Shown here: positions 385 to 56,287 of the stretch, one piece after another
Numbering within the stretch: position 1 is the stretch's first letter
Layout of the letters: every line of letters starts with the position of its first letter
Assembly (NCBI GenBank): GCA_026986535.1
Contig: JALSOK010000030.1
Location: forward strand, 1-56,287
Reading direction: 5' to 3'
DNA from: a candidate division WOR-3 bacterium
Lineage (GTDB): Bacteria > Hydrothermota > Hydrothermia > LBFQ01 > DSFT01
DNA length: 56,287 nt
Translations under genes and position numbers: made by a program
Notes under the pieces: model-generated
Seen by the model: the letters and a program-made list of their open reading frames with translations, nothing else
The model's database searches: none
Told to the model about the DNA's origin: nothing

Positions 385-390
385 TAAACT
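385..390 (+). promoter_or_regulatory. -10-like box TAAACT, 8 nt upstream of the HIT gene ATG
   Basis: Reads CCTTTAAACT-TTTAGCCC-ATG, with no SD in between. Confidence 0.4.
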
Positions 391-398
391 TTTAGCCC

Positions 399-734
399 AT
401 GCAGAAGGATTGCATATTCTGCAAAATCGTGGCGGGAGAAATTCCTTCGGATAAGGTACTGGAGACGGAGCACTGCATAGTGATAAAGGATATCAATCCT
501 CAGGCTCCCATTCATCTTCTGGTGATAACGAAGGAGCACCTGGACGACATAACCCGGATAGAGGACAGGGAAATTGCGGCCGATATCATAGGGGCGATAA
601 ATAAAGTGGCCAGGGAGCTGAACCTGAAGGATTTCAGGGTGGTGAACAACAGGGGAAGGGGGGCCGGCCAGAGCGTGTTCCATGTGCATTTCCACATTCT
701 GGCGGGCAGACCATTTTCGTGGCCACCGGGATAG
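399..734 (+). CDS. HIT-family (histidine triad) nucleotide hydrolase/transferase
   Basis: 111-aa ORF. It has the canonical histidine-triad motif SVFHVHFHIL near the C-terminus and an N-terminal CIFCKI zinc-like motif typical of Hint proteins. Confidence 0.9.
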   Translation: MQKDCIFCKIVAGEIPSDKVLETEHCIVIKDINPQAPIHLLVITKEHLDDITRIEDREIAADIIGAINKVARELNLKDFRVVNNRGRGAGQSVFHVHFHILAGRPFSWPPG

Positions 735-760
735 AAAAAACTTCAAGGGGGTGATTCTTA

Positions 761-967
761 ATGACCGGAGTAAGGCTGAGAGAGGGAGAGACCTTCGAGA
801 GCCTCCTCAAGAGGTTCAGGAAGGTGGTAATGCGGGACGGGATTCTCCAGGATTACAAGAGGCACATGGTGTATGAAAAGCCCTCCGAGAGGAGGAAGAA
901 GGCCCGCATTGCCGCCCGCAGAAGGTGGCTCCGCAAGCTGAGGAGGCTCCAGGAAGAGCTGAGATGA
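761..967 (+). CDS. rpsU: 30S ribosomal protein S21
   Basis: 68-aa very basic ORF with the typical S21 pattern (ESLLKRFRK...KRHMVYEKPSERRKK). An SD-like AAGGGGGTGA lies upstream. Confidence 0.9.
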   Translation: MTGVRLREGETFESLLKRFRKVVMRDGILQDYKRHMVYEKPSERRKKARIAARRRWLRKLRRLQEELR

Positions 968-2889: not shown

Positions 2890-5639
2890 CGTCCTGCGAC
2901 TGTAAGGACGAATCCTCCCCAGTACACGGGCGAACTGAGGCCCGTATTACGAAGGATATACAGCTGTGCCTTCTTCAGGGCCCTGTCCACGGTTTCTCCG
3001 CGGGCCAGATAGCCATACATTCTTTTCATGAGCAGGTAGGAAGCGAAATCGTTCAGGTCCCACAGGGTGCTTATAACGCATCTGGCGCCGGTATATACGA
3101 ATCCCCTCGTCAGGTTGAAGAGACCTTCCCAGTCGTTTATGAATTTCCCCAGCCCGGTTCTGCATCCGCTCAGAACCACGAGATTCTTTACTCTCAGGCG
3201 GGAGTATATCTCCCCGAGCCTCAAAATATTGTCCCTGGAGGGGAGAGTGTCTTTACTGGGTCCCAGGACTATCATACTGCTCGAATCCACAATTGCATGG
3301 GTTGCAAAGTGAATTACGGGAAACCTGGACGGATCCATTTCGTAAATCTTTTCTTCGGACACCTCGCTTCCGGTCAGGGCGATGCCTCCAATAGAAAGGG
3401 CGACGGCTCTGGCTTCCTCCTCCGCATATCTCAGGTTTCCTATTTTCCTTCTGGTGAGGATTTCATTTTTCCCATAATCGTTCCTCCCTACGGCGAGGGC
3501 GGGACCCTTTACCCGGCAGGGCTTCCCGAAGTTCCACAGGGAGAATACCCTGTATATAGAATAGGGCTTTTCCACCAGGAACTCTTTTCCGTCGTACAGA
3601 ATAGCAAAGGGCAGTTGTGTCAGGATTCCATGGGGAGATATGGCCAGAGCCCTGTATCCGGCCAGAAAGGTATCGAAGGGTTCTATCAGAATCCTCCACA
3701 GGAGCATGGAAATCTTCCTGCTGGTGGAAGGACTGGACAGGAGATGGTTCACGAGCCCCTCCAGGCTGTCTGCGGGAATATCTATGGAGAGGGTTATCGT
3801 ATCTCTTCGAGTAATCAGATACTCTGTGAGTTTCTCCCTTCCGACCACATATCCCAGGAGGGCCGTTCCTTCGGGCAAAATTCCCGCCTTCTTCGCAAAG
3901 GACCTTCTCCTCTCCACCATGTGGGCGAATATTCGCTTTTCCATGAGGAGGAGGCTGTCGTAGGGCAGACCCATATCTATCATGGCATAGAGCTTTCTGG
4001 TAAGGCTGTCCATCACCGGGTCGCTGGACCAGTTTATTTCCTCCGACAGGAGTTTCGCTTTCAGCAGTTCGCTGATTCTTACAGGGCCCGATTTCAGACC
4101 CCGGCTTATCAGAAGGGGCAGCAGTTTCTCCCAGCGCCTCTGGAGTTTCTGATAGTAATTCTTCCTGCTTATGCTGGTCATGCTGGAGCCCATGAGGAGC
4201 CTAATCTCTATGGTGTCCATAATGCTGGATGCCCGCTCGTACTCTCCCCTCAGTGCGTACAGCTTCAGTTTGTGCATCAGAATGAAAGTGGTATGGGTGA
4301 ACTGCTTCTGGGCCATATTCAGCCAGTACAGGGCAGAGTCATGGTCTTCCAGAATCTCGTATGCTATTACTTTCCCGATAATGTACCACCCGGGCAGGTC
4401 GGGGTAGTAGGCATCCACCGTCTGGAGGCTGTCCAGGGAAGCTCTTGCCACCAGTTTTGCCCGGGCTGTATCGCCCACACGCAGGTAGTACTGGGCCCTT
4501 CCTATCATGTCATCAAATACAATCCAGTCGAACTTTCCGCCCCTCGTTTTCTTTCTTATTCTCACAATCTGCCTGTGGAGGGCAAGGGCGCTGTCCATCA
4601 TTCCAAGCCTCAGCATCCTGTTGTATATGTTGGCCATTACATTTGCCACCCCCTCGTTGTCCGTGCCGAAGATTTCCAGGTGAAACTTCAGGCTCCTTCT
4701 GAGGATTTCGAGGGCAATGGAGTCGTTTTCCTCCGATAGCCCCACATTGTTCAGGATGATGGGATAGCTCAATCCCCACTTCTTCCTGATTCTTTTCATT
4801 GAATCGGCTATGGAAAGGGCTTTTTTGTAATACACATATCCCACCCTGTGGTCGCTGTAAAAGTAGGAGGTGATATCGCCCACAAATGTGTAGTAGTGGA
4901 ATTTCATGAAGGGGTCATCTATTTGTCCCAGGGAGTCCATTATCATGGTGGCATGGTAGAGGGATGTGAGGGGCAATCCCTTCTTCATGTAGTACAGGGC
5001 AAGGGACATGTGGATGTCGCTTCTAATATAGGGATCCGGATGCCGGGAGAGGGACTTCAGGGCCCTTTCGTAGGTGCTGTCCAGCGGCCTTACCGGTATA
5101 TAGGTCATTACAACCGGGAAAAATGCGGTGTCCACTACCGTGTGGAATCCTCTGAAGGCGATGGGCAGGGGATGCCTGGACCTTATGTTTTTGCTTGCGA
5201 GGGCTTTATCGAGCGGGAGAAAGCTTTCAGTGGGCACGGAGGGATAGGTGTTTTTCATCAGGTTTCCCGATGCGATATGGGTGTATGGCTCTATGGGCGT
5301 GTCCTTTCCCGCCTCCCTTATCTCCCGGGCAAGCCGGATGAGGAAATCTTTGCGGTTCTTCAGGAGCTGAACATCGAAGTCCAGTATGATCCGGTAAAGC
5401 AACTGCCCGTACAGGGCCCTCAGGTACGCCTTCCAGAGGGGCAGATTCTTATCCTTTATGATTTCGTATGCCCTTTCCAGCAGAGCCCGCGCCGAGTCTT
5501 CCATCTGTTGCTCCATGAGGCGGGGAATATCGTTTACATACCTGTAGGAGAGGATGCATGCACTGTCTCCCCGCTCGATGCATGAGAGGATACCATCATC
5601 CACATATACCGGAGAGTGCAGCAGGAAAAACGGGAGCAT
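2886..5639 (-). CDS. TPR-repeat protein with C-terminal CHAT (caspase-like) protease domain
   Basis: 917 aa. The N-terminal two thirds are helical and repeat-rich (TPR-like: ALYYMKKG, YYKKALSIAD, AQYYLRVGDTARA). The C-terminus has the CHAT His/Cys dyad context VIHFATHA and VVLSGCRTG. Confidence 0.85.
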   Translation of the reverse strand: MLPFFLLHSPVYVDDGILSCIERGDSACILSYRYVNDIPRLMEQQMEDSARALLERAYEIIKDKNLPLWKAYLRALYGQLLYRIILDFDVQLLKNRKDFLIRLAREIREAGKDTPIEPYTHIASGNLMKNTYPSVPTESFLPLDKALASKNIRSRHPLPIAFRGFHTVVDTAFFPVVMTYIPVRPLDSTYERALKSLSRHPDPYIRSDIHMSLALYYMKKGLPLTSLYHATMIMDSLGQIDDPFMKFHYYTFVGDITSYFYSDHRVGYVYYKKALSIADSMKRIRKKWGLSYPIILNNVGLSEENDSIALEILRRSLKFHLEIFGTDNEGVANVMANIYNRMLRLGMMDSALALHRQIVRIRKKTRGGKFDWIVFDDMIGRAQYYLRVGDTARAKLVARASLDSLQTVDAYYPDLPGWYIIGKVIAYEILEDHDSALYWLNMAQKQFTHTTFILMHKLKLYALRGEYERASSIMDTIEIRLLMGSSMTSISRKNYYQKLQRRWEKLLPLLISRGLKSGPVRISELLKAKLLSEEINWSSDPVMDSLTRKLYAMIDMGLPYDSLLLMEKRIFAHMVERRRSFAKKAGILPEGTALLGYVVGREKLTEYLITRRDTITLSIDIPADSLEGLVNHLLSSPSTSRKISMLLWRILIEPFDTFLAGYRALAISPHGILTQLPFAILYDGKEFLVEKPYSIYRVFSLWNFGKPCRVKGPALAVGRNDYGKNEILTRRKIGNLRYAEEEARAVALSIGGIALTGSEVSEEKIYEMDPSRFPVIHFATHAIVDSSSMIVLGPSKDTLPSRDNILRLGEIYSRLRVKNLVVLSGCRTGLGKFINDWEGLFNLTRGFVYTGARCVISTLWDLNDFASYLLMKRMYGYLARGETVDRALKKAQLYILRNTGLSSPVYWGGFVLTVAGR

Positions 5640-5694
5640 ACTGATATTTAATTTTACAGGCGGGGAGAGGAGTCCCCGCAGCCGGTTTATCCGA

Positions 5695-7462: not shown

Positions 7463-7538
7463 CATCCAAATTTTAATGCCATCCCGGAAATTCCCTGTGC
7501 CGGTAAGGCGTGGAATTTGCGCAAATTTCCAAAACCTT

Positions 7539-7544
7539 TATAAT
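7539..7544 (+). promoter_or_regulatory. -10 box TATAAT, 7 nt upstream of the parA ATG (leaderless configuration)
   Basis: Reads CTTTATAAT-TTCGACT-ATG. Confidence 0.5.
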
Positions 7545-7551
7545 TTCGACT

Positions 7552-8328
7552 ATGTCGAAAATCGCTGTGGTTAATCAGAAGGGAGGCGTCGGAAAGACCA
7601 CCACAGTCGTCAATCTCTCTACAGCTTTCGCACAGCAGGGAAAGAGGGTTTTAGTGGTGGATGGAGATTCCCAGGCCAATGCCACCAGCGGATTCGGAAT
7701 AAATGCCCGCAAGATGCAGAACCTGTACCATGTCCTGATTGGTGAGGCCGATATAGACGATGTCATAGTGCATATAAAGGATGCGGGGGTTGATCTGGTC
7801 CCCTCTTCTCCGGATTTGATCGGTGTGGATGCGGAGATCAAGGACTTTGAGCACTGGGAGCTGTTCCTGAAGAACGCTCTGAAGAAGGTGGAGAGCAGAT
7901 ACGACTATATTTTTATAGATGCCCCCCCTTCCCTGGGAACCCTGACCATCCTCATTCTGGCTGCCGCCGATTCCGTCCTGATTCCCGTTCAGGCGGAGTA
8001 CTATGCTCTGGAGGGGGTGGCCCAGCTTCTGGAGACCATAACCCATGTGAGGAGGACCATAAACCCTTCTCTGAACTTGAAGGGGTTCCTTATAACGATG
8101 TTCGATAAGAGGACGAAGCTTGCGGAGCATGTGGAGGAGGAGATAAGGAGGATTTTCCCCAATCTGGTGTTCGATACGGTGATACCCAGGAGCGTCAGGC
8201 TGGCGGAGGCTCCCAGTTATGGACTTCCGGGGGTGATATATGACCCCACATCCTCGGGAGCGAAGGCCTATATGGAGCTGGCAAAGGAGATGTTGAGCCA
8301 TGAAGAGGAAGCAGCGGGGATTAGGTAG
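7552..8328 (+). CDS. parA: Chromosome partitioning ATPase ParA/Soj
   Basis: Deviant Walker A KIAVVNQKGGVGKTTT; ParA-type DSQANAT and IDAPPSLG motifs. Start at ATG 7552 (MSKIAV); the track ORF starts at 7510. Confidence 0.9.
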   Translation: MSKIAVVNQKGGVGKTTTVVNLSTAFAQQGKRVLVVDGDSQANATSGFGINARKMQNLYHVLIGEADIDDVIVHIKDAGVDLVPSSPDLIGVDAEIKDFEHWELFLKNALKKVESRYDYIFIDAPPSLGTLTILILAAADSVLIPVQAEYYALEGVAQLLETITHVRRTINPSLNLKGFLITMFDKRTKLAEHVEEEIRRIFPNLVFDTVIPRSVRLAEAPSYGLPGVIYDPTSSGAKAYMELAKEMLSHEEEAAGIR

Positions 8329-11978: not shown

Positions 11979-12431
11979 TCAGTCGATTATTCCCCAGTTC
12001 CTCAGCACTTCCAGGACCTCATCCACACTGTGGACCCGGACCATGCCCTCTATTTCGTGGGTCCTGTAGCCTATTATCTTCCTGTTCAGTATCTTCGCAT
12101 AGGCCAGTTCGGAGAGGGTCCCCCATGCCCCTCCCACTGCTATTACCACTTCTGAGGATGCCACCACGATGGGATTCCTGTTCCAGCCCATACCGGTGTT
12201 TATTTTTATGCTCAGGTATGGGTTTGCGTCGCTTCCATCGTATGTGGTCATTATGCCCACGCTTATTCCCCCTGCTTCCCTCACTCCCCGGGATACGGCT
12301 TCCATTACTCCGCTCCTGCCGCCGTTTATCACCACCACATTCCTCCTGCCCAGTTCTTTCCCCAGGCGGTACGCAAAGCTGTAGAGGTCCTCATCCGCAA
12401 CGGATGCCCCTATCACAGAGACCTGCTTCAT
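11979..12431 (-). CDS. TIGR00725/LOG-like Rossmann-fold nucleotide-binding protein
   Basis: Motifs VSVIGAS, VVINGGRSGVMEA and AVGGAWGTLSELAYA (LOG/DprA-like SLOG pattern). Start at ATG 12431 (MKQVSV), which has a TAAACT box 7 nt upstream. Confidence 0.7.
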   Translation of the reverse strand: MKQVSVIGASVADEDLYSFAYRLGKELGRRNVVVINGGRSGVMEAVSRGVREAGGISVGIMTTYDGSDANPYLSIKINTGMGWNRNPIVVASSEVVIAVGGAWGTLSELAYAKILNRKIIGYRTHEIEGMVRVHSVDEVLEVLRNWGIID

Positions 12432-12438: not shown

Positions 12439-12444
12439 AGTTTA
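12439..12444 (-). promoter_or_regulatory. -10-like box TAAACT, 7 nt upstream of the LOG-like gene ATG
   Basis: The minus strand reads CTTTAAACT-TCACCGC-ATG. Confidence 0.4.
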
Positions 12445-12526
12445 AAGACCCTCTTTCCCCTGGCCGGGGGTGGAAGGGGCGGGTGTGAACTCTTTATAAT
12501 TTCCATCCTAACGGAGGAAGGGGGAT

Positions 12527-14958: not shown

Positions 14959-17694
14959 TCAATATTCCAGTCCAAAGTATAAACTATAAACGGGTTTGCC
15001 CCAGGGGTCCAGCATCTTTTTAAGGTCGGTTCTCCAGGAGACATCCAGGATCACATCTGCGAATCCTATGAACCACCTGGTGCTGAAACCGAACGCTGCC
15101 TTCGGTGATGCCAGAGATCCGTCCGGATTGAAGAACCTGAATCCCTCATCGTCGAACCATGCATAGCCCATATCGAAGAACAGGGCTCCCCTTATGTTGC
15201 TCAGACGGATTGGCGGTATTCCGAATGTGATGTTTCTGATGAAGGGGAATCTGAACTCCGAATTCCACACGAAGAAGTTGTTTCCGAAGAAGAGGGATAG
15301 ACTCCTCCATCCCCTGACATCGTAGAAGATGAAGGGATTATCGTATGCATTCCTTCCCCAGACCCTTCCTCCAGCCAGACGGAGGGCCAGTATGTACCAC
15401 CTGGAGAATCTGAAGTACTTCCTTGCATCAGCCATGAACATGTGGTACTGGAGATCCCCTATCGGGGAGGACTGCAGACCCACAAATAGCCTGTCCCCGT
15501 CCACCGGCCCCCATGGATAGTACAGGGCTCTGTCGTGGGAAAACCCCACATAGGCGAAGGGACTGTGAAGGTACATAACATAATCCACGAAGTAGTCCCC
15601 GTTGGCATCCATGTACCTGGTTTTGTAATCATACCCGAACCCCATCTCCAGCCTGTCGAACCGATTGAAAGGATAGTAGGTGAGCATGTATCCACCCAGG
15701 TTCTTGTCCAGCGCCAGATAGAGGCTGTTGTTCTGAACCCCTATGGACCAGCTCCAGTACTGGTGGGCGTTGAGGTTGAGGTCCCATCTCCTCTTCAGGT
15801 ACAGGTAGTCCAGGAAGAACTGCATATTGGTTATGTCCTGCGTGTACAGGTCGGAGGAGAAGATGATCCAGTTGTCCCCCGTCCAGTCCGACAGCCCCAC
15901 TGTGAAGTATCCGGCCCCACCGTACAGGGTGGAGTATCCACCCGCTCCCGCTATCCAGTCAATGGAAAAGGCCACCTTGTAGGGTTTATTTACATAGTCC
16001 ACCGGCCTGTAGGTGTAGGGATGGGATTTTTCGGAAAAATACGATGGGTCCAGGGTATCGTAGATTTCCAGCTCATTGAAGACGAGTATCTCCCTCGCCC
16101 CATCCATCTGCATGCTGGTGGCCATCAGGTTGCCGTCCCTGTCGAAGGAGAAGGTGTATATACCGGTGGCCACATTGGTGATCCTGTAGAGCTTTCCATC
16201 CCTGTATTCGAAGAGGTTTATGGTCCCCCCGTACTCCAGGGCCAGAACGGGGTTGCCCTTTCTCAGGTCCATGTAATGAATCTTTCCCATATAGGGGCTT
16301 ATGCGCTTTACCTGTGTCCCATCGTAGGAGAAGATGGCATAATCCCCGAATCTGTAAAAGTCATCGTTCCTGTCGCTTATGAAGAGGATGTTCCCCTCCC
16401 TATCGAAAACGGGAAAGAGGTCCGTAAAGTAGTCATCGGTGATCTGGACCATGCTGTTGCTCTCTATGTGGTACACATAAATGTCCGGACGCCCATCCTT
16501 CATCCCCACCAGTGCTATGGACTTTCCATCGGGAGAAAAGGCGGGATACCTTATTCCATCCAGGTCCTTTACGGGAATCTTCCTTATAATCTTCCCATTT
16601 CTGGCGTCTGCCACATAGAGTATGTCGTATCCGGGTCCCCTTGCCACGAATGTGAATTTCTTTCCATCCGGGGAGAAGTCCAGTTTGGCCTCCAGGAGGT
16701 GAAGATTCTCCAGGTCCGGCCGCGTATTCCCCGATATTAGCTTCTTCTGATACTTCCCCGTGATGCTGGCCATGTATATGTCCGAGTAGTCGTTCCTGTC
16801 AGTAATGAATACGATTCTGTCCCCGCCGGGAGAGACATCGGGGGCGATGTTGAAGTACCCCTGCCCCTTCTGTCTGTCCGTGATCTGTACAGCGTATCCC
16901 CTGAGGTCGAATCGGGCCAGGTACGGATAGTACTTTTCTTTGAGCCAGAGGGAGAAATCCTTCGAGAAGTTCTCCATGGTTATGTTCAGGGTCTTTCTGA
17001 AGGTCTGCTCGATATTCATGGTAAAGGCGAGGTTGGAGATGAATTCCCTTACCTTCTGTCTGCCGTAGACCTCTTCTATGTAGTAGTAGATGGCCTGCCC
17101 CTCTTTGTAGATCAGGTATCCCCCATAGTTTCCGAGCTGTGTGACGGGAACGAGGAGGTCGTTCAGGACCAGGTCCCTGACATACACTTCCCCCGTTATG
17201 TCCCATCCGATGGATACATACTCCGCCATCCCCTCTATGGACCACAGGGGGATTCTTCCCATGCTCTGGGACAGGAGCCCCTGCGTGTTGCTGAACATTT
17301 CGTACTGGAATACATGGACCAGCTCGTGCCTGAGGACATGTCTGAATTCATCGTAGGAGCCTGCAAATGGAACGACAACCCTCCTCTTGAACACCTCGGT
17401 GAATCCACCGACCCCCTCGTCTATGAGGCTGAATATGACATTGGTCTGCCGGAAATCATCGGGGGAATTGTAAATCAGAACCGGTATCTTCCCCTTCGGT
17501 GTCTTCGGCATTACATCCCTGTATTCCTCGAATGCTTCTTCCAGTACCCCTATTGCAAAATCTTTCAGGTGGTCCCCCCCCTGATAGTAGAAGACCCTGA
17601 AGTGCTGACTTTCCGCCACTTTCCACTGGAAATCCCTGTACTGGACCTTATTCTTACCGAAGTAGCCCAGAAGGATGAAGAATGTAAAGGTCAT
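14959..17694 (-). CDS. Outer-membrane fusion protein: MA-clan metallopeptidase-like domain (HExxH) + TolB/PD40-type beta-propeller repeats + Omp85/BamA-type C-terminal barrel
   Basis: 911 aa. The short hydrophobic N-terminus is MTFTFFILLGYF. HELVHV motif near residue 130. Repeated PD40-like units (DVSPGGDRIVFI, FSPDGKKFTFV, FSPDGKSIALV). The C-terminus has the Omp85 signature RGALFFDMGYAW and the terminal aromatic ..LYFGLEY. Confidence 0.7.
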   Translation of the reverse strand: MTFTFFILLGYFGKNKVQYRDFQWKVAESQHFRVFYYQGGDHLKDFAIGVLEEAFEEYRDVMPKTPKGKIPVLIYNSPDDFRQTNVIFSLIDEGVGGFTEVFKRRVVVPFAGSYDEFRHVLRHELVHVFQYEMFSNTQGLLSQSMGRIPLWSIEGMAEYVSIGWDITGEVYVRDLVLNDLLVPVTQLGNYGGYLIYKEGQAIYYYIEEVYGRQKVREFISNLAFTMNIEQTFRKTLNITMENFSKDFSLWLKEKYYPYLARFDLRGYAVQITDRQKGQGYFNIAPDVSPGGDRIVFITDRNDYSDIYMASITGKYQKKLISGNTRPDLENLHLLEAKLDFSPDGKKFTFVARGPGYDILYVADARNGKIIRKIPVKDLDGIRYPAFSPDGKSIALVGMKDGRPDIYVYHIESNSMVQITDDYFTDLFPVFDREGNILFISDRNDDFYRFGDYAIFSYDGTQVKRISPYMGKIHYMDLRKGNPVLALEYGGTINLFEYRDGKLYRITNVATGIYTFSFDRDGNLMATSMQMDGAREILVFNELEIYDTLDPSYFSEKSHPYTYRPVDYVNKPYKVAFSIDWIAGAGGYSTLYGGAGYFTVGLSDWTGDNWIIFSSDLYTQDITNMQFFLDYLYLKRRWDLNLNAHQYWSWSIGVQNNSLYLALDKNLGGYMLTYYPFNRFDRLEMGFGYDYKTRYMDANGDYFVDYVMYLHSPFAYVGFSHDRALYYPWGPVDGDRLFVGLQSSPIGDLQYHMFMADARKYFRFSRWYILALRLAGGRVWGRNAYDNPFIFYDVRGWRSLSLFFGNNFFVWNSEFRFPFIRNITFGIPPIRLSNIRGALFFDMGYAWFDDEGFRFFNPDGSLASPKAAFGFSTRWFIGFADVILDVSWRTDLKKMLDPWGKPVYSLYFGLEY

Positions 17695-17701: not shown

Positions 17702-17707
17702 ATGTTA
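17702..17707 (-). promoter_or_regulatory. -10-like box TAACAT, 7 nt upstream of the 911-aa OMP gene ATG
   Basis: The minus strand reads CTTTAACAT-TTGGACT-ATG. Confidence 0.45.
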
Positions 17708-18839: not shown

Positions 18840-18845
18840 ATTTTA
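18840..18845 (-). promoter_or_regulatory. -10 box TAAAAT, 7 nt upstream of the EEP lipoprotein ATG
   Basis: The minus strand reads GTGTAAAAT-TTGGAGG-ATG. Confidence 0.45.
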
Positions 18846-18856
18846 CACTTTTTCTT

Positions 18857-18862
18857 TATACT
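18857..18862 (+). promoter_or_regulatory. -10-like box TATACT, 7 nt upstream of ATG 18870
   Basis: Reads CTTTATACT-TGTCTTT-ATG. It is divergent from the EEP promoter 12 nt away. Confidence 0.4.
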
Positions 18863-19210: not shown

Positions 19211-19216
19211 TAAAAT
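19211..19216 (+). promoter_or_regulatory. -10 box TAAAAT, 6 nt upstream of the fadN-like ATG
   Basis: Reads CCTATAAAAT-TTTCCC-ATG. Confidence 0.5.
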
Positions 19217-21589: not shown

Positions 21590-21958
21590 TTACAGCATGA
21601 GCTCCTCCAGCTCTTCCCGGATTCCGGGAAGAACCATCCGTATCATACCGAGGTTCACCTCCCTGTCCGTGATGAGGGCCAGGATTGCATCCTCCCCGAT
21701 GCTGTAGAAGAACACTTTTCCATTCTCCCCCTCTATCATGAAGTCCTCTGCTTCCCCTATGTTCAGCTGGGGTGCCACTTTCTTCGAGAGAATCGCGATG
21801 GAGGAGATTATGGCAGATATGCGGTCCTCCTCTCCGGATGATTTCATATCGGAGGCCACGGGGAGCCCATCTATGGTGGAGATTACTATCCCCCTCAGTC
21901 CCTTCAGGTTCCTGAACAGTTTTTCGAATACTTTGCGAATTCCATCGGCGAGATTCAT
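21590..21958 (-). CDS. Roadblock/LC7 (MglB-like) domain protein
   Basis: 122 aa with the typical roadblock pattern (LRGIVISTIDGLPVAS ... ISAIISSIAILSKK ... FFYSIGEDAILALITD). SD AGGAGG upstream. Confidence 0.75.
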   Translation of the reverse strand: MNLADGIRKVFEKLFRNLKGLRGIVISTIDGLPVASDMKSSGEEDRISAIISSIAILSKKVAPQLNIGEAEDFMIEGENGKVFFYSIGEDAILALITDREVNLGMIRMVLPGIREELEELML

Positions 21959-22209
21959 ACAACAACCTCCTGTTCATGCGAATTTTAAAGGATGGAAATC
22001 GTCAAATAGTTTTTGAATACCTTATTAAGGGCACCTTCCTCCATCCTGCTGTCTGTCATCCGTTTAGTCCGTATGGGGGAGCAGGTGGCCGGTTCCATAC
22101 CCCTCCGGGATGGCAGTTAGCAGTTCTGTCAGTATAAGGGGGAAATGCTGTGGAATCGGGACCTTATATTTCCTCTGTTTGTATGGTATCTGAACAAAGG
22201 AGGTAGGCT

Positions 22210-26855: not shown

Positions 26856-26861
26856 ATTTTA
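26856..26861 (-). promoter_or_regulatory. -10 box TAAAAT, 6 nt upstream of the GNAT-ACS ATG
   Basis: The minus strand reads GTATTTAAAAT-TTCTTC-ATG. Confidence 0.5.
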
Positions 26862-29497: not shown

Positions 29498-29512
29498 TTA
29501 AACTTTCCCCCG

Positions 29513-31857: not shown

Positions 31858-31870
31858 GTGAGGACTAATT

Positions 31871-32248
31871 TTATAGGGAAATCTGCTCCAAGATTTTCCG
31901 GACCAGCTTTCCCGTTATGAGCCTGGCCCTTCCGACGGAAATCCCGGGGGAGGCCACCAGTATTATACCCAGTTCGTTCTTTAAATGCTCCAGCAGAATG
32001 ATACCCCTGCCCGTTTCTATGACTACCCTTTCCATTGGGGCCATATTGAGACTCTCCATTACTTTGAGAGATGTGGATAGCAGACCTCCCCCTCTGGCTG
32101 ATAGTTCCTCTCCCCCGATGCCGTCCTGTACCGCGTATGCCACTGGATTTCCGTGCCTGTCGAATATGGCGATAGCGAGAATTCCATTGTCCCTCATATT
32201 ATCCCTCAATATTTTCATCAAGTGCTCTATACGATATTCCCTTTTCAT
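31871..32248 (-). CDS. Roadblock/LC7 (MglB-like) domain protein, second copy
   Basis: 125 aa with the pattern GILAIAIFDRHGNPVA ... LLSTSLKVMESL ... VVIETGRGIILLEHL. Confidence 0.7.
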   Translation of the reverse strand: MKREYRIEHLMKILRDNMRDNGILAIAIFDRHGNPVAYAVQDGIGGEELSARGGGLLSTSLKVMESLNMAPMERVVIETGRGIILLEHLKNELGIILVASPGISVGRARLITGKLVRKILEQISL

Positions 32249-36748: not shown

Positions 36749-36768
36749 CTTTAAAATTTGCCCGTCCG

Positions 36769-38977: not shown

Positions 38978-38983
38978 TAACAT
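38978..38983 (+). promoter_or_regulatory. -10-like box TAACAT, 7 nt upstream of the GT2 ATG
   Basis: Reads GCTTTAACAT-TTCCACG-ATG. Confidence 0.45.
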
Positions 38984-42332: not shown

Positions 42333-42333
42333 A

Positions 42334-43674: not shown

Positions 43675-43720
43675 GGTTTTAAAATCTTAAAGGGGGTCCC
43701 GGGGTGCTTTTACCGACTCT

Positions 43721-44014
43721 TCATCTCATCAGCAGGATTACGAGCAGTACCGCGGCCATGATTGTGGCAACGAGGGACCAGACCCTGTAGATATTCAATC
43801 GATTTCCCATCTCTTCCAGACGGGATTCGAGGAGGCGATTCCGGGCACGGCAATCTTCCAGGTTCCTTTCCAGCTCCCTGATTTTCTCGTAGTAATTTTC
43901 AGCAGGGGCCATCGGGGATTTTTCGTTGAAAGCCCTGCGCATGAATTTCTTTACCAACTCCCTTGCGATAAATGGTCCCACCTTTTTCACAAATTCTTTC
44001 AGCCTATCCCACAT
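43721..44014 (-). CDS. Small coiled-coil protein with C-terminal TM helix (tail-anchored), paralog A
   Basis: 97 aa: amphipathic N-terminus, coiled coil IRELERNLEDCRARNRLLESRLEEMGNRL, and terminal VWSLVATIMAAVLLVILLMR. TAAAAT box 6 nt upstream of the ATG. Confidence 0.55.
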   Translation of the reverse strand: MWDRLKEFVKKVGPFIARELVKKFMRRAFNEKSPMAPAENYYEKIRELERNLEDCRARNRLLESRLEEMGNRLNIYRVWSLVATIMAAVLLVILLMR

Positions 44015-44020: not shown

Positions 44021-44026
44021 ATTTTA
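44021..44026 (-). promoter_or_regulatory. -10 box TAAAAT, 6 nt upstream of the small paralog A ATG
   Basis: The minus strand reads AGTTTTAAAAT-TGTACC-ATG. Confidence 0.45.
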
Positions 44027-44040: not shown

Positions 44041-44358
44041 CTATCTCCAGAGCAGAACTACGAGGAGAATTGCGGCGGCGATAGTTGAGGCGATTGCCCA
44101 GATGCGGGTGAATCGGAGCTGGTCCCCCTTTTGCCTCAGAGCCTCTTCCAGCATTTGCCTTTCCAGGTTGCACCTTTCAAGGTCGTTCTTACAGGCCCTC
44201 AGTTCCTCCCTCAGCTTCTGGATTTCGTTTTCTCTGGAGAAATCCAGTGACCGGGAACTGTCCGATTTTCCTCCGGAAATGAACTGGATCACCCTCCTGC
44301 CCGATTCGAATAATATTAATTTGGCCGCCTCCTTCAGGATTCTGCCGATGAATCCCAT
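44041..44358 (-). CDS. Small coiled-coil protein with C-terminal TM helix (tail-anchored), paralog B
   Basis: 105 aa: coiled coil IQKLREELRACKNDLERCNLERQMLEEALRQKGDQL and terminal IWAIASTIAAAILLVVLLWR. TAAAAT box 7 nt upstream of the ATG. Confidence 0.55.
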   Translation of the reverse strand: MGFIGRILKEAAKLILFESGRRVIQFISGGKSDSSRSLDFSRENEIQKLREELRACKNDLERCNLERQMLEEALRQKGDQLRFTRIWAIASTIAAAILLVVLLWR

Positions 44359-44365: not shown

Positions 44366-44371
44366 ATTTTA
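44366..44371 (-). promoter_or_regulatory. -10 box TAAAAT, 7 nt upstream of the small paralog B ATG
   Basis: The minus strand reads CATTTTAAAAT-TTTCACC-ATG. Confidence 0.45.
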
Positions 44372-47561: not shown

Positions 47562-47563
47562 GG

Positions 47564-48646
47564 CTAAATCTTTACCGGCATTATTAGGTATTTGAGGTTT
47601 TCCTCCCCGCTGCCTATGAGGATGGGGGAGGTGTCCCCGTATATGCGCATCTCCATATCCCCTCTGGGCAGATGTCTTATTATATCCACGAACTTCTTCG
47701 TGTCGAGGACGATCTCGTAGGGGCTCCCCTCATACCTGCCCTCCAGCTGGATTTCCAGTTCATCGCCGTCCGTGTTGGCGGCATGAATCAGCAGGCTGTC
47801 TTCGGAGAGGACGAACTTCAGGTTGTCGGGGTTGATGGCGGTTGCCGCCTTCAGGGCCCTGTCCATGTCTTCCCTCGTGATGCGCAGGGAGCTGTAAGTG
47901 CCCTCCGGGAATATTCCCTCGTAGTTGGGGTACGGTCCCTGAATCAGCCGGATGTTTATGAATCCTTCGGGGAACCTTATGGTCATGTAATTCTGATCCT
48001 CCGTGAACCCCACTTCCACCTTCTCCGCCTCTATGTCCTTGAGGACCCCCTTCAGGTTTCTGGGAAGAATGGCCTGGAATTCCCTCCCCGTGGGTATTTC
48101 TCTTTCCGCAACCCCCAGGACGAAGCTATCGGTGGCCACGAACCTGCTCGACTCATCCCTGCTGTCCCACAGGATGCCCGTGAGGAAGAGTCTGCTGTCG
48201 TCGGAGGCCGCACAGAATTCCACCCTGTCCAGGGCCCCGATTACATCTTCCAGGCTTACCATAAAGGTTCCGGTGGTCTCCTTTGGACTTATGGGGGGAA
48301 AGAGTTCGGGGTCCTGCGTGACGACCCTGTACCTGACCCCTTCGGACTGGATGGTCAGGTTGCTGTCGCTCGTGCTCACATCCACAACGGCGTCCTTTTC
48401 GAAAACCTTTATGAGGGAAGTAAATTTCTTGCGGTCAACCAGAGCCCTTCCGGGTTTCGAATCCAGCACTGGAATGGACATGACCATTTCTATGTCTCCG
48501 CTTGTGGCATACATCCTGAGACGACCCTCTTCCACCTCCAGCAGAATGTTGTTGTGGATATCGAGGGCGCTCCTTCCACCCCCCACGAGTTTTCCAATTG
48601 AGGTAATATTCCGCTCTATCAATTTCTTCTCCACCTTGAACTTCAT
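47564..48646 (-). CDS. dnaN: DNA polymerase III beta sliding clamp
   Basis: 360 aa, N-terminus [21 protein letters not shown], three-domain length, C-terminal ..[17 protein letters not shown] upstream. Confidence 0.9.
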
Positions 48647-48678
48647 ATCTTCCTCCTCTTTTAAACCGAAGGGTGAAA

Positions 48679-48684
48679 ATTATA
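48679..48684 (-). promoter_or_regulatory. -10 box TATAAT upstream of dnaN (leadered, with SD), overlapping the tsaE stop
   Basis: The minus strand reads CGTATAATTTTCACCC..., then about 20 nt, then GAGGAGGAAGAT-ATG. Confidence 0.4.
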
Positions 48685-49117: not shown

Positions 49118-49148
49118 GAAGAAGAAGACAGGGGGACTTCCCCTGCAA

Positions 49149-49538: not shown

Positions 49539-49575
49539 GATAACACCTCCCGGACGGATCTGAATAATAAAAAAG

Positions 49576-49647
49576 AGCGGGAGACGGGATTCGAACCCGC
49601 GACCCCCTGCATGGCAAGCAGGTGCTCTACCACTGAGCTACTCCCGC
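49576..49647 (-). tRNA. tRNA-Gly (anticodon GCC), no encoded CCA
   Basis: The minus strand reads GCGGGAG-TA-GCTC-AGTGGTA-GAGC-A-CCTGC-TTGCCAT-GCAGG-GGGTC-GCGGG-TTCGAAT-CCCGT-CTCCCGC-T. This folds into a cloverleaf with a 7-bp acceptor stem, GCC in the anticodon loop and a U discriminator, followed by a T-run. Confidence 0.9.
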
Positions 49648-49662
49648 TCGGTCGGGGTGAAA

Positions 49663-49668
49663 ATTATA
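49663..49668 (-). promoter_or_regulatory. -10 box TATAAT, 15 nt upstream of the mature tRNA-Gly 5' end
   Basis: The minus strand reads CTTTATAATTTTCACCCCGACCGA followed by GCGGGAG (tRNA). Confidence 0.5.
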
Positions 49669-49742
49669 AAGCAGATGGGATGGGGATTGCAGGGACGCGG
49701 CCCGCCCGGAAGACCGCCCGGATGAACAGGGAACTGTTCTGC

Positions 49743-51143: not shown

Positions 51144-51144
51144 A

Positions 51145-52332: not shown

Positions 52333-52490
52333 TCCTTTTCACCTCCTGGTTTTCATGGTTTTTAAAGGGGAATTGTAAAAAATCGCATCCCCTTCCAAAG
52401 CCCCACAATTATAAACACATCTGGAGCGATGGTGAATCCCCGGTCCCCATCCTCTCCATCTGCCGCTCTCTGGTTTAAACTTATGAGTCG

Positions 52491-52814
52491 ATGCTGTGGC
52501 TGTTTCTCGTCTCCCAGTGCTCCTGCCCCCCGATGGATGATATGGGTGCTGTCGCCCGCTCCGATATGGTGTTCGAGGGGGTTGTGGATAGTGTAATCCG
52601 GGACTCTGTTCGGGGATATGTGTTCGATGTGTCCTTCGTTATAAAGGGGCCCGACACCGGCAGGGTGGTGGTGTGGACCCCCGACTCGTGCGGGGTGGAA
52701 TTCAGAAGGGGCGGTGAGTACAGGGTTTTCTCCAGGCTGGTCGATGGAAAGTTGATTACGGACGCCTGCTCCGGTTCCTATCCCATCTATTCGGAAGAGG
52801 AATATGATCAATAG
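52491..52814 (+). CDS. Small Cys-containing protein resembling the TIMP / NTR N-terminal domain
   Basis: After a 9-aa hydrophobic leader the sequence reads CSCPP...SDMVFEGVV...YVFDVSFVIKG...VVVWTPDSCGVEF..GGEYRVFSRLVDGKLITDACSGS. This parallels TIMP-1 CTCVPP...SDLVIRAKF...YEIKMTKMYKG...[36 protein letters not shown]. It overlaps the recJ start by 11 nt. Confidence 0.5.
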   Translation: MLWLFLVSQCSCPPMDDMGAVARSDMVFEGVVDSVIRDSVRGYVFDVSFVIKGPDTGRVVVWTPDSCGVEFRRGGEYRVFSRLVDGKLITDACSGSYPIYSEEEYDQ

Positions 52815-54426
52815 GGCCATGAAGATTCACGAGAAAGTGGAGGAGGTTCTGCGCCTTCGGGGGATGGACGATGATGACATCGAGATGTTTCTCAATCCCT
52901 CTGTGGAGCAGATAAGGGACCCGGGGGGGCTGAGGGATATAGACAGGGCTGTGGACCTCATAATCCACCACATGAGGAGGGGAAGCACCATCATGGTCCA
53001 CGGGGATTACGATGCCGATGGAATAACTGCCCTTTCCCTCCTGTACCGGGTCCTTTCCCGTGTTTACAGTCCGGATAAGCTGGTTCCCTACATACCGGAC
53101 AGATTTGTGGAGGGATATGGCCTGTCCATGCGGGCTGTTCGAAAGGCTGTGGAGGATGGGATTTCCCTCATCATAACCGCCGACTGTGGAATTACATCCG
53201 TGGAGGAGGTGGAGGAAGCCCGCAGGCACTCGGTAGATGTGATTATTACGGACCACCACGAGCCCCCGGAAACCCTGCCCCGGGCCAGTGCGATAGTTCA
53301 CCCCATGCTGAGCGGGGATTACCCGTTCAGGCACCTGACGGGGGTGGGGGTGGCTTTCAAGCTCATGCAGGCCCTGTACAATCGTCTGGGCAAGCCGTTT
53401 CGCCATTTGCTGTGGGACCTGGATCTGGTGGCCATAGGTACTGTGGCGGATATGGGGGAGCTGGTCGATGAGAACAGGGTTATGGTGAGCCTTGGACTGA
53501 GGGTTCTGCGGGAGACGAAGAAGGCCGGCCTCAAGGCCCTCAAGTTCGTCGTGGGGGTTGATGGATATGTGAGCACCTGGCACATCGCTTTTCTTCTGGC
53601 CCCCAGGCTCAACTCTGCGGGGCGCATCTCGGACCCCATGCACTCCTTCAATCTTCTGACGGAAAGGGATGGGAACAGGGCCCTCCTCCTGAGCCACAGG
53701 CTCAATCGCCTCAATCAGGAGAGGCAGAAGTACGAGAAGAGGATTCTGGACAGGGCGATGGCCCAGGCCATGCGGAAGGCGGGAAGGGATGTTCTGGTTC
53801 TGTGGGACTGGGGATGGCATGAGGGGATAATAGGGATAGTGGCTTCCAGAATCGTCAGCAGGTGGAACAGACCGGCCATAATCATCTCGGTCCAGGGGGA
53901 GACCTCCCGTGGAAGTGCCAGGAGTACGGAGGGTTTTCATATGCAGAGGGCCCTTTCCGAGCTTTCCTATATGTTCGAGAACTTCGGTGGGCACGAGATG
54001 GCGGCTGGTTTCACCATAAAAACCGAGTATCTCGAGGAGTTCGAGGAGAAGATAAACCGGATAGCAAGGGAGCATTTCGCCGGTTATGAGCCCTCCACTC
54101 CCGATGCCGAGGCGGTCCTTCGCCCCCATGACCTGAATGACCTGTTCGTGCGGGATATGAGGAGAATGGCCCCATTCGGTAATGGAAATCCCTCCCCCCT
54201 CTTCCTGATGAATTCCCTGAAGGTGGTGGGAAAGGAGCTCAGGGGCAGAACCCTGTACATAACACTTTCCACCGGAAGGGATGAGCTTTACGGCCGCATA
54301 TACGACCCCTCCGACAGGTGGATGGGTCTGAAGGAGGGGGATGTGATCGATTTGCTCATGAAGTTCCGGGAGGTGGTGAGGCTCGGCGGCCAGTTCCTCA
54401 TAGAACCCGTGGATTTTTCCAGGTGA
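52804..54426 (+). CDS. recJ: Single-stranded-DNA-specific exonuclease RecJ
   Basis: Motifs VHGDYDADGITA, ITADCG, ITDHH and GGHEMAAG (DHHA1). Confidence 0.9.
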   Translation: MINRAMKIHEKVEEVLRLRGMDDDDIEMFLNPSVEQIRDPGGLRDIDRAVDLIIHHMRRGSTIMVHGDYDADGITALSLLYRVLSRVYSPDKLVPYIPDRFVEGYGLSMRAVRKAVEDGISLIITADCGITSVEEVEEARRHSVDVIITDHHEPPETLPRASAIVHPMLSGDYPFRHLTGVGVAFKLMQALYNRLGKPFRHLLWDLDLVAIGTVADMGELVDENRVMVSLGLRVLRETKKAGLKALKFVVGVDGYVSTWHIAFLLAPRLNSAGRISDPMHSFNLLTERDGNRALLLSHRLNRLNQERQKYEKRILDRAMAQAMRKAGRDVLVLWDWGWHEGIIGIVASRIVSRWNRPAIIISVQGETSRGSARSTEGFHMQRALSELSYMFENFGGHEMAAGFTIKTEYLEEFEEKINRIAREHFAGYEPSTPDAEAVLRPHDLNDLFVRDMRRMAPFGNGNPSPLFLMNSLKVVGKELRGRTLYITLSTGRDELYGRIYDPSDRWMGLKEGDVIDLLMKFREVVRLGGQFLIEPVDFSR

Positions 54427-54446
54427 GTACAGTTCCCGGTGCGGTA

Positions 54447-54452
54447 TAAAAT
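54447..54452 (+). promoter_or_regulatory. -10 box TAAAAT (TATAAAAT), 6 nt upstream of the PLD-HerA ATG
   Basis: Reads GGTATAAAAT-TGGCTC-ATG, 20 nt after the recJ stop. Confidence 0.45.
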
Positions 54453-54458
54453 TGGCTC

Positions 54459-56287
54459 ATGCGGATACTCGGCAGCGATGAAATTGGCGAAAAGGTAATC
54501 GAAATGGTGAAAGGCGCCAGCGATTGCGTCTGCATGGCTTCCGCATGGATCACAGGGGGTGCTGTGGAGAGAATCGTGAGGGCCATTCCCGATGGGGTCA
54601 GGGTTCAGGTGGTGATACGGGCCTCCGAGTTTGCTGACCTGAGGATAACCGATGATAGGGTTTTTGCCCTCCTGCGAGGGAAGGGGGCGGGGATATTTCT
54701 GAACGACAGGCTCCATGCCAAATTCGTAGTGGTGGATGGCAGGGAAGCGGTGGTGGGGTCTGCCAATATCACCGCGAGCGGATATTCCCCTTTCGAGAGG
54801 GGAAATATCGAGGCGGCCGTTTACTACAGCCGGCACGATGACGAGGAGCAGATCCGGGAGCTTCTGGATTACTTCGGGAGGATTCTGGAGGCTTCGTATC
54901 CCCTGAACGACAGCCTGGTGGGATATGTGATAAATCCATCGGGGACCAGAAGTCTGCGGGCCATATTGCTGGACCGCCGCGTGCAGGAGTACTCCTTCGT
55001 GGAGATAGGGGATGGGGTACTGGGGAGAATCGACAGCATCAGGTCTTACAGCGCGGGATTCTTCAACAATCCCTTCGAGGATGGATACAGCGATGTGTAT
55101 GCTCCCACGGGGGACTTCATGGAGATTTTTTCCCACAATCGGGACATGGACTGGATGAGGGCCGCGGTGTATTCCTATTTGAACGAGAGGGCCAGAAAGG
55201 TGAGAATTGCCACGGTATCTATTCTGGGCCGCATTCGTGGGCAGGAGGATGGTTCCTTCAGGCTGGAGCCATTGAGTGTGCCGGCCGATGTTGGAGAGCC
55301 CGTCTATGTATCCGGGAAGGTGGGTCATTTGCTTTCAAAAGGGGGAGTGGCAATCGGAAGGCTGTACGGTTTCGATACCCCCGTGGAGATAGACCACAGG
55401 CAGATTCTCAGAAAGCACATGCTCGTTCTGGGCAATACCGGTTCCGGCAAGAGCTACTTCACAAAGCTCTTCATCAGCAGGCTGGCGGAGAAGTCGGAGG
55501 ATGTGGGCAGGATCGTGGTGCTCGACCCCCACGGAGAATATGCCCGGGCCTTTGCAGGGGATGATGAGGAGGGAAGGTTCCGTTTGAGCAACATGAAGGT
55601 GCTGCGGCTGAGGGATGTCTTCTTTCTGGATGACGCGAGGGATGTGGTGGATTTTCTCTCGGAATACGGAGCCCTCATGCCCTCTTCCAATTCGGAGGTT
55701 TACAGGAACCTGCAGTCTGCCATCGTGGAATGGCTCAGAAATCCCTCGGGCAGTCTGCGGGATGAGATTCGGAAGGTGGATTTTGGAAAGTATGAGTACA
55801 ACAGAGAGACGATAGAGGAGGCTTTCGATTCCATGGAAGAGGAGTTCGGTCCCGATTTCTTCAGGAGTGTTTGGGATACCAGGAAGCGGATAGAGGAGCA
55901 TCTGAATCTTTCGGGCACTGTGGTATTCGACCTCAGCGGTGTGACGGTCCCGACCATAAGGGTGCATATTGCCGGCTTTGTGATGAGGAGTCTGTTTCTT
56001 AAGGCCCGTAGGGAGGAAGCATACGACGCCCTTATAGTGCTTGAGGAGGCCCACAACTTTGCCCCCGAGAGGGGCTACGGGGAGGTGTCCGCCGGCAGGG
56101 ATAATCCGGCTCTCGTCTGGGCCAGGAAGATTGCCAGCGAGGGGAGGAAGTTCGGGGTGGGTCTGGTCACCATAACCCAGAGGCCCGCACAGGTGAGCAA
56201 GTATGTCCTTGCCCAGATGAATACGCAGATGATGTTCAGGACGGTAAATTCGCAGGATATAGATGCAGTCAGAGAGTTTGTGGAATT
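54459..56287 (+). CDS. PLD-family (single HKD) nuclease domain fused to a HerA/FtsK-type ATPase; 3' end outside the window
   Basis: This ORF is not in the supplied track because it has no stop before the window end. My manual translation from ATG 54459 is open for 609 codons. HKD motif LHAKFVVVDGREAVVGSANIT. HerA motifs VLGNTGSGKSYF, ALIVLEEAHNFAP, GRKFGVGLVTITQRPAQV and AQMNTQMMFR. Confidence 0.85.
   Translation, partial: MRILGSDEIGEKVIEMVKGASDCVCMASAWITGGAVERIVRAIPDGVRVQVVIRASEFADLRITDDRVFALLRGKGAGIFLNDRLHAKFVVVDGREAVVGSANITASGYSPFERGNIEAAVYYSRHDDEEQIRELLDYFGRILEASYPLNDSLVGYVINPSGTRSLRAILLDRRVQEYSFVEIGDGVLGRIDSIRSYSAGFFNNPFEDGYSDVYAPTGDFMEIFSHNRDMDWMRAAVYSYLNERARKVRIATVSILGRIRGQEDGSFRLEPLSVPADVGEPVYVSGKVGHLLSKGGVAIGRLYGFDTPVEIDHRQILRKHMLVLGNTGSGKSYFTKLFISRLAEKSEDVGRIVVLDPHGEYARAFAGDDEEGRFRLSNMKVLRLRDVFFLDDARDVVDFLSEYGALMPSSNSEVYRNLQSAIVEWLRNPSGSLRDEIRKVDFGKYEYNRETIEEAFDSMEEEFGPDFFRSVWDTRKRIEEHLNLSGTVVFDLSGVTVPTIRVHIAGFVMRSLFLKARREEAYDALIVLEEAHNFAPERGYGEVSAGRDNPALVWARKIASEGRKFGVGLVTITQRPAQVSKYVLAQMNTQMMFRTVNSQDIDAVREFVE

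Follow-up and report, generated by a model that had tools for sequence, protein, structure and literature searches.

The genome of a candidate division WOR-3 bacterium (GenBank assembly GCA_026986535.1) places a promoter-like hexamer, typically TAAAAT or TAAACT, immediately in front of the start codons of many genes, and a series of such boxes lies on contig C30 (JALSOK010000030.1; 56,287 bases), referred to below as the window, meaning this whole stretch. Very probably the box sets the transcription start at or near the A of the ATG, which would yield mRNAs without a Shine-Dalgarno site. The motif, its spacing, its identity as a promoter, its partition with Shine-Dalgarno sites and its conservation in relatives can be read from the DNA itself; from them we infer the exact start point and translation from a 5′ AUG. 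The assembly holding the window spans 1.74 Mb in 160 contigs, has a G+C content of 52% and is 96% complete as judged by marker genes.

In the proposed mechanism, the sequence cCTT-TAAA(A/C)T-TT would serve as the housekeeping promoter, of the extended −10 type and essentially −35-free. For roughly one in three genes, and roughly one in two unit heads, the start point, taken as the seventh base after the hexamer, would coincide with the A of the ATG or lie only a few bases from it, and RNA polymerase would produce an mRNA whose 5′ untranslated region is absent or a few nucleotides (nt) long. Since such an mRNA has no Shine-Dalgarno site, it would have to be recruited by its 5′-terminal AUG, which is leaderless initiation. 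Operon-internal genes, and first genes with a promoter at least 20 nt upstream, would instead pair a GGAGG sequence with the CCUCC tail of 16S ribosomal RNA (rRNA).

Box-to-start spacing in the genome and the window

Here the strict box is the hexamer TA[ACT]A[ACT]T, and the spacer is the number of nucleotides between hexamer and start codon. Across the whole genome and without any gene calls, 107 of the 1126 copies of TAAAAT have an ATG at spacer 6 and 77 have one at spacer 7, where the background is about 20; for TAAACT, the spacer-6 count is 65 of 653 over a background of about 10. This caller-free spacing peaks at 6–7 nt, at about five times the background, and the reverse complements of the two hexamers give no spacing peak before ATG genome-wide.

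Gene starts were obtained with a home-made caller (in-frame hexamer log-odds with greedy overlap resolution), which picked 1485 starts from coding score and a start-codon prior alone and ignored the upstream sequence. At these starts, strict boxes with spacers of 5, 6, 7, 8, 9 and 10 were found in 9, 188, 104, 52, 91 and 40 genes, respectively, those with spacers 6–9 amounting to 435 of the 1485. Among the 25,092 internal ATGs of the same genome, which served as the internal control, a strict box occurs at 1–2 per 1000 (0.1–0.2%) for each spacer, placing the enrichment at the coding-score starts at about 100-fold. Pattern-free counting of 7-mers in the 30 nt before starts returned TAAAATT as the top word (331 observed vs. 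6.7 expected, 49-fold), TAAACTT was seen 158 times vs. 3.3 expected, and all leading enriched 7-mers are fragments of one motif. The box-before-start pattern is real and genome-wide, and these genome-level tests are decisive: both the histogram set against internal ATGs and the motif discovery bear out the expectation of the preliminary description of this DNA that the spacing would be more peaked than AT-richness predicts.

That description had also given the spacer as fixed at 6–8 nt. The observed ranking is 6 > 7 > 9 > 8 > 10, which preserves the peak at 6, then 7, and adds a second shoulder at 9–10. Below 6 nt the distribution falls off a cliff (9 genes at spacer 5 vs. 188 at spacer 6), which fits canonical geometry with the hexamer predicted at −12 to −7 and the seventh following base at +1. 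Directly before the ATG, C is found in 68% of the genes with spacer 6 and 50% of those with spacer 7, compared with 24% of Shine-Dalgarno genes, a preference that matches the pyrimidine(−1)/purine(+1) signature of bacterial transcription start sites. In the spacer-8 and spacer-9 classes the C-rich position lies at −2 from the ATG rather than −1, hinting at 1-nt leaders or at flexible start-site selection. After an extended box, the start codons at spacer 6 comprise 119 ATG, 12 GTG and 1 TTG.

In the window, the 16 hexamers reported previously were all confirmed, each on the strand of its gene and at its reported position and spacer before the ATG, including the second ATG of lipB at 7 nt; examples checked in the sequence are cttTATAATttcgactATG (parA), ctaTAAAATtttcccATG (fadN-like gene) and cttTAAACTtcaccgcATG (LOG-like gene). 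Twenty strict boxes have an ATG 6–9 nt downstream, vs. 5–6 with an ATG at 16–19 or 26–29 nt, and dinucleotide shuffles of the window (n = 200) gave 9.4 ± 3.0 boxes with an ATG at 6–9 nt. Taken alone, this window count is modestly significant and suggestive only. The earlier statement that nearly every transcription unit begins in this way went too far, as a box lies within 12 nt of the start at 18–19 of about 37 putative unit heads in the window and at 53% of divergent heads genome-wide. The sites are as follows (coordinates and strand first; aa, amino acids).

385–390 (+): TAAACT box, 8 nt before the ATG at 399 of a HIT-family gene; start chosen by coding score, Pfam match HIT
5651–5656 (−): TAAAAT box, 11 nt before the ATG at 5639 of a 917-aa gene; near-leaderless, absent from the earlier list
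7470–7475 (−): TAAAAT box, 4 and 7 nt before the adjacent lipB ATGs at 7465 and 7462; Pfam match LplA-B_cat
7539–7544 (+): TATAAT box cCTTTATAATTT, 7 nt before the parA ATG at 7552; six relatives keep the box and its spacing of 7 nt
12439–12444 (−): TAAACT box, 7 nt before the ATG at 12431 of the SLOG/LOG-like gene (shortened start)
12495–12500 (+): cttTATAAT box of a leadered contrast, 26 nt before the TTG at 12527; short leader with GGAGG
17702–17707 (−): TAACAT box (weaker), 7 nt before the ATG at 17694 of a 911-aa peptidase-MA/PD40 protein
18840–18845 (−): TAAAAT box, 7 nt before the ATG at 18832 of an EEP-family gene
18857–18862 (+): TATACT box, 7 nt before the ATG at 18870 of an 87-aa open reading frame (ORF); gene uncertain, DUF2279 match below cut-off
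19211–19216 (+): TAAAAT box, 6 nt before the ATG at 19223 of a 3-hydroxyacyl-CoA dehydrogenase/enoyl-CoA hydratase fusion (fadN-like)
21982–21987 (−): cttTAAAAT box of a leadered contrast, 23 nt before the ATG at 21958 of a Roadblock/LC7 gene (21590–21958); AGGAGG in the leader
26856–26861 (−): TAAAAT box, 6 nt before the ATG at 26849 of a GNAT and acyl-CoA synthetase fusion
29499–29504 (+): TAAACT box, 8 nt before the ATG at 29513 of an HD-domain gene
31868–31873 (−): TAAAAT box, 10 nt before the ATG at 31857; near-leaderless, absent from the earlier list
36752–36757 (+): cttTAAAAT box, 11 nt before the ATG at 36769; near-leaderless, absent from the earlier list
38978–38983 (+): TAACAT box (weaker), 7 nt before the ATG at 38991 of a GT2 glycosyltransferase gene
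43684–43689 (−): TAAGAT box (weaker), 9 nt before the gcvPA ATG at 43674; Pfam GDC-P match from residue 5
44021–44026 (−): TAAAAT box, 6 nt before the ATG at 44014 of small paralogue A (97 aa)
44366–44371 (−): TAAAAT box, 7 nt before the ATG at 44358 of small paralogue B (105 aa)
48679–48684 (−): TATAAT box of a leadered contrast, 32 nt before the dnaN ATG at 48646; GAGGAGG in the leader
49663–49668 (−): gCTTTATAATTT promoter box, 15 nt before the mature 5′ end of tRNA-Gly (49575–49647), an untranslated gene
52476–52481 (+): TAAACT box, 9 nt before the ATG at 52491 of a 107-aa ORF; start uncertain, the coding score preferring 52533
54447–54452 (+): TAAAAT box, 6 nt before the ATG at 54459 of a PLD-HerA fusion gene that runs off the window

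Promoter identity and the partition with Shine-Dalgarno sites

Aligned on the box, the promoters give the consensus cCTT-TAAA(A/C)T-TT, in which the T directly after the hexamer is present in 92% of sites and each base of the preceding CTT in 60–66%. Upstream of box position −4 the aligned promoters have no information content, and they show no second promoter-like motif upstream of the box. A TTGACA-like −35 element at 16–18 nt, counted at four or more of six matches, was found in 67 of 436 promoters vs. 38–45 at control offsets, a weak excess that leaves this element essentially absent. The promoters are −10-only or extended −10-like and depart from the canonical sigma-70 layout of −35 and −10 elements. 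Despite the near-absent −35, the encoded RpoD (549 aa; contig C27, locus L143, 577–2226) keeps a canonical region 4.2 (ITRERVRQIEAKA), so that a loss of −35 recognition by the sigma factor is no obvious cause of the −35-less promoters.

The extended motif, typically CCTTTAAAATTT, also stands ahead of nearly all tRNA genes or, in clusters, the first tRNA, 8–18 nt from the mature 5′ end. These distances are never below 8 nt except for two outliers at 3 nt; they are consistent with a predicted start about 7 nt after the box and would give primary tRNA transcripts a 5′ leader of about 1–11 nt for RNase P to remove. The form cCTTTAAAATTT precedes the transfer-messenger RNA (tmRNA) gene as well, at 33 nt, and on the minus strand of contig C72 three tandem motifs (tccTTTAAACTTT, gcTTTAAACTTA and tatTAAAATTA) lie about 85, 160 and 235 nt before the 5′ end of 16S rRNA. 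Copies of TTTA[AT]A[AC]TT are intergenic in 413 of 456 cases (91%), intergenic DNA making up 16% of the genome; 206 copies have a called start 5–12 nt downstream and a further 123 have one 13–150 nt downstream. The sequence evidence indicates that the motif is a promoter and not a translation signal, and that it is a general promoter element of this organism.

Two side observations concern these untranslated genes. The three motifs upstream of 16S rRNA resemble stacked rRNA promoters. In the tRNA-Arg/tRNA-Trp cluster of contig C8 (19224–19387, minus strand), a full CCTTTAAAATTG lies 3 nt before tRNA-Trp, in the gap after tRNA-Arg; at that distance transcription could not begin ahead of the mature 5′ end, and the copy would be an unusual internal promoter, a chance occurrence or a relic.

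Over the whole gene set, 36% of genes have a strict box at 5–12 nt and 30% have GGAG or GAGG at 3–11 nt, the latter with spacing peaks at 6–8. The two occur together in 7 of 1483 genes (0.5%), which corresponds to 7 of the 541 box genes. Of the divergent heads, 53% have a box and 17% a Shine-Dalgarno site; for genes that begin less than 25 nt after a same-strand neighbour, the proportions are 17% and 46%. Box and Shine-Dalgarno site are mutually exclusive and split by operon position. The 16S rRNA tail reads GGATCACCTCCTTT, with the CCUCC anti-Shine-Dalgarno sequence intact, making both modes of initiation available. Shine-Dalgarno sites had previously been assigned to operon-internal genes; they do occur there, in the 46% just given, and are found in addition in the short leaders of first genes, where a promoter box 23–32 nt upstream of the start is followed by a GGAGG-type site (window examples at 21958, 12527 and 48646).

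Start codons and conservation in relatives

Several N-termini in the window can be checked against homologues. The alignment of ParA with its homologues starts at residues 1–4, and Pfam profiles begin at residue 2 (SLOG), 6 (3HCDH_N), 8 (GT2) and 5 (GDC-P), which means that the true starts cannot lie further downstream. Homology and Pfam thus place the N-termini of ParA, the SLOG protein, the 3HCDH protein, GT2 and GcvPA at these ATGs, from which translation as a 5′ AUG would proceed. The preliminary description had used the box as a criterion for shortened starts. For the LOG-like gene this is supported three times over: the coding-score caller independently picked 12431, the Pfam profile covers the protein from residue 2, and orthologues in family f2 begin at the aligned Met, with a TATAAT 6–7 nt upstream. 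The shortened start of the EEP gene (18832) was likewise picked independently by the caller, coding score being the sole support in that case. The box cannot decide between the two adjacent lipB ATGs, and the 18870 ORF stays an uncertain gene.

The comparison with relatives draws on small samples of related, non-independent genomes and is a sketch rather than a census. According to the kinship table, family f1 consists of the source genome, one genome of the same genus and five from a second genus; the search also took in twelve genomes of family f2, which belongs to the same order. The closest ParA matches are metagenome-assembled genomes (MAGs) named Candidatus Caldipriscus (58% identity) and ‘Thermotogota bacterium’ MAGs. 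Caldipriscus is assigned by NCBI to Candidatus Caldipriscota, regarded in the literature as the WOR-3 lineage, of which a first isolate is available (PMC12285271). To judge from L092 and L001, whose sequences upstream of parA are identical, the f2 genomes appear to include the Caldipriscus-type MAGs.

Upstream of parA, CTTTATAATTT and its 7-nt spacer are kept in the same-genus genome and in the five genomes of the sister genus (71–72% protein identity), the flank further upstream being unrelated. The fadN-like gene retains a TAAAAT or TAAACT box 6–10 nt from the start in 3 relatives, and the LOG-like gene retains its box as TATAAT in another family (f2). In f2, parA is operon-internal and has no box.

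Genome-wide counts in relatives, each set against a backwards control, follow the same kinship. TTTAAAMTT-N5-8-ATG occurs 152 times vs. 4 in the source genome, 139 vs. 9 in its congener and 285–411 vs. 30–68 in the sister genus, and is weak elsewhere. For TAWAMT-N6-7-ATG, the ratio over the backwards control is 8.6 in the source genome, 5–6 in f5, about 6–11 in f8 (small counts), 1.4–2.8 in f2 and about 1–1.5 in most other classes of the phylum. Box spacing in relatives was sampled from the first ATG of ORFs of at least 600 nt; the f2 and f5 DNA sampled shows peaks at spacers 6–9 for TATAAT, TAGAAT or TAAAAT, with differing flanks, and families f3 and f4 look mainly Shine-Dalgarno-led. The leaderless layout is pronounced in certain families of the class and faint in others, and hence looks evolutionarily labile within the phylum.

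Base composition and tRNA promoters add two observations. The two genera of family f1 share the CTTTAAAATTT promoter and the leaderless layout despite lying about 20 points apart in G+C content, one of them (G002–G006) having about 31% G+C in the G002 sample and the other (G000 and G001) 52%. Relatives in other families have the same tRNA promoter design with TATAAT: in sister families of the same order and class, the tRNA promoters read ccTATAATat or TATAATtt.

Competing explanations, known systems and annotation

A box lying in the ribosome-binding-site zone (−16 to −6) and excluding Shine-Dalgarno sites could act in translation, as a non-Shine-Dalgarno ribosome-binding or S1-binding signal of a leadered mRNA comparable to the Bacteroidota-like ‘group B’, with transcription starting further upstream. 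In favor of this idea, too, WOR-3 is frequently positioned close to the FCB group, in which initiation without Shine-Dalgarno sites is common. We nevertheless consider it very improbable. The identical extended motif precedes tRNAs, tmRNA and 16S rRNA, none of which is translated; there is no second promoter-like motif upstream of the box; and wherever the motif moves out to 23–32 nt, a GGAGG appears between it and the start codon. A group B architecture would have one motif at first and internal genes of leadered mRNAs, its signal being described for internal genes as well (PMC6028130); here the box falls from 53% at divergent heads to 17% at operon-internal genes, where it is three times rarer and GGAGG takes its place. 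Resemblance of cTTTAAAa to the archaeal TATA consensus, in a lineage that appears thermophilic and deep-branching, raises the question of whether the TTTAAA core is TATA-box-like, in which case transcription would start about 25 nt downstream, the annotated ATGs would lie off the mRNA and the true starts would be found downstream. Such a start would fall inside the tRNAs, given boxes 8–18 nt before their mature 5′ ends, and would remove the conserved N-termini of ParA (from residues 1–4) and of the Pfam-matched proteins (profiles from residues 2–8). A normal RpoD with canonical region 4.2 is encoded, and the spacer cliff at exactly 6 nt fits sigma-70 geometry, so we assign this possibility next to no weight.

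Two further readings concern the genes rather than the motif. Selection of examples from AT-rich intergenic DNA, with starts freely chosen, might by itself produce TAnnnT at 6–8 nt, and some circumstances point that way: the box had been used earlier to choose some starts, which is circular; the crude window count is about twice the shuffle expectation, and 1 of 200 shuffles reached it; and a TAA at spacer 6, 9 or 12 is a stop codon in frame with the ATG, so that the ATG is bound to be the earliest candidate start of its frame. This artefact reading is already refuted, and its probability is negligible, by the spacing peak in counts made without gene calls, the approximately 100-fold excess of coding-score starts over internal ATGs, the 49-fold enrichment of pattern-free 7-mers, the extent of the motif, whose high information content reaches 3 nt before and 2 nt after the hexamer, and the box and spacing kept by orthologues. 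It is improbable, too, that the box is a promoter while the box genes are mainly transcribed by read-through from upstream, leaderless mRNAs then forming a small share of expression. The 17% of closely following genes (less than 25 nt after a same-strand neighbour) that have a box, and the compactness of a genome with 16% intergenic DNA, make read-through plausible for some genes; yet with Shine-Dalgarno sites in 7 of 541 box genes, a read-through transcript would have no obvious initiation route, the box is present at more than half of the divergent heads, where no same-strand gene lies upstream, and box and spacing are under purifying selection in relatives.

Several points weigh against the leaderless interpretation or limit it. 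The transcription start is deduced from canonical sigma-70 geometry. Spacers of 9–12 occur in 190 genes and would imply leaders of 2–6 nt, making these genes near-leaderless and not strictly leaderless. The histogram has a dip at spacer 8 and shoulders at 9–10; in-frame TAA at spacers 6, 9 and 12 biases the start caller, but the dip persists in caller-free counts. Both signals, the strict box and the Shine-Dalgarno site, are missing from about a third of genes, and part of this class probably reflects starts miscalled by the home-made caller. Start-codon usage adds no support, since ATG opens 90% of box genes and 93% of Shine-Dalgarno genes, a difference that is not significant. The leaderless interpretation is supported all the same, as each sequence-level prediction that could be tested was borne out.

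Bacteroidota promoters have a −7 element, TAnnTTTG, within an AT-rich −10-region element with a T-rich 3′ extension, and make little use of a TTGACA −35. The promoters described here are similar in their AT-rich −10-region element, its T-rich 3′ extension and the little-used −35; they differ in register (TAAAATTT vs. TAnnTTTG). Unlike Bacteroidota, where mRNAs are leadered and mostly free of Shine-Dalgarno sites, the mRNAs here appear leaderless and internal genes have a clear GGAGG. We speculate, with more doubt than conviction, that both genera of family f1 possess a distinct housekeeping promoter grammar: 11–12 nt long, −35-independent, with A rather than T at hexamer position 3 and flanks nearly as conserved as the hexamer. 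Recognition would be lineage-specific if the primary sigma factor or RNA polymerase itself reads the flanks, for instance through discriminator or extended −10 contacts. If true, lineage-specific promoter recognition would be coupled to one of the strongest leaderless signals among the sampled WOR-3 genomes.

The leaderless layout itself is known from Deinococcus and Actinobacteria and is found here in a WOR-3 lineage; the likeness to the dual architecture of Deinococcus-Thermus and Actinobacteria, already drawn in the preliminary description, is correct (PMC6028130, PMC4007540). Group C of GeneMarkS-2 comprises 1028 of 4769 bacterial genomes, mostly Actinobacteria and Deinococcus-Thermus, with a Pribnow box 6–8 nt from first-gene starts and 25–50% of operons predicted leaderless (PMC6028130). 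The present genome resembles this group in having a Pribnow-type box before first genes and Shine-Dalgarno sites at a similar distance before internal or leadered genes, and its box frequencies (36% of genes, 53% of divergent heads) may be set beside the 25–50% of leaderless operons (PMC6028130). It differs in lineage, which is WOR-3/Caldipriscota-related, and in a consensus of TAAA(A/C)T with CTT and TT flanks instead of TATAAT or TAnnnT.

In D. deserti, differential RNA sequencing found 60% of mRNAs to be leaderless (leader below 6 nt), with a −10-like motif directly upstream, no conserved −35 and Shine-Dalgarno sites in leadered mRNAs (PMC4007540). A lone −10 motif, the missing −35, Shine-Dalgarno sites in leadered genes and, for the present genome as a prediction, a large leaderless share are common to both organisms (PMC4007540); D. 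deserti belongs to another phylum, its starts were measured where ours are predicted, and the motif here is longer and more uniform (an 11–12-mer). M. smegmatis and M. tuberculosis likewise have many mRNAs beginning at the start codon, a TAnnnT about 7 nt upstream and dual initiation (PMC4633059). Unlike the present genome, in which ATG dominates, mycobacteria are GC-rich, frequently use GTG as a leaderless start and were characterized by RNA sequencing and ribosome profiling (PMC4633059).

In the literature searched, no paper combines ‘leaderless’ with ‘WOR-3’. The present case would add a largely uncultured candidate phylum (WOR-3/Caldipriscota, with Caldipriscus relatives in hot springs) to the heavy users of leaderless mRNA and is relevant to the question of whether leaderless initiation is an ancestral trait or has arisen repeatedly; its patchiness across families could be exploited comparatively. 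Metatranscriptomic data from springs that harbour Caldipriscus have been reported (PMC11696919). Should a relative be cultured, the very uniform 11–12-nt promoter would ease promoter prediction and the design of synthetic expression systems. For annotation of the lineage, the box offers a reliable criterion for start codons and operon heads; gene finders trained on Shine-Dalgarno sites can be expected to over-extend or misplace starts, as in the LOG-like and EEP genes.

Three minor observations concern the neighbourhood of individual boxes in the window. At 18840–18862, the −10 boxes of the EEP gene (−) and the 87-aa ORF (+) stand back to back, divergent and 11 nt apart, and in the divergent lipB/parA pair the boxes (7470–7475 and 7539–7544) are separated by 63 nt. 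The 911-aa protein (14959–17694, minus strand) had been labelled an outer-membrane protein. It gives weak Peptidase_MA_2 and BSP matches together with a PD40 beta-propeller repeat, matching the peptidase-MA and PD40 beta-propeller families and not an outer-membrane family, and from its sequence it looks more like a secreted or periplasmic peptidase-propeller protein.

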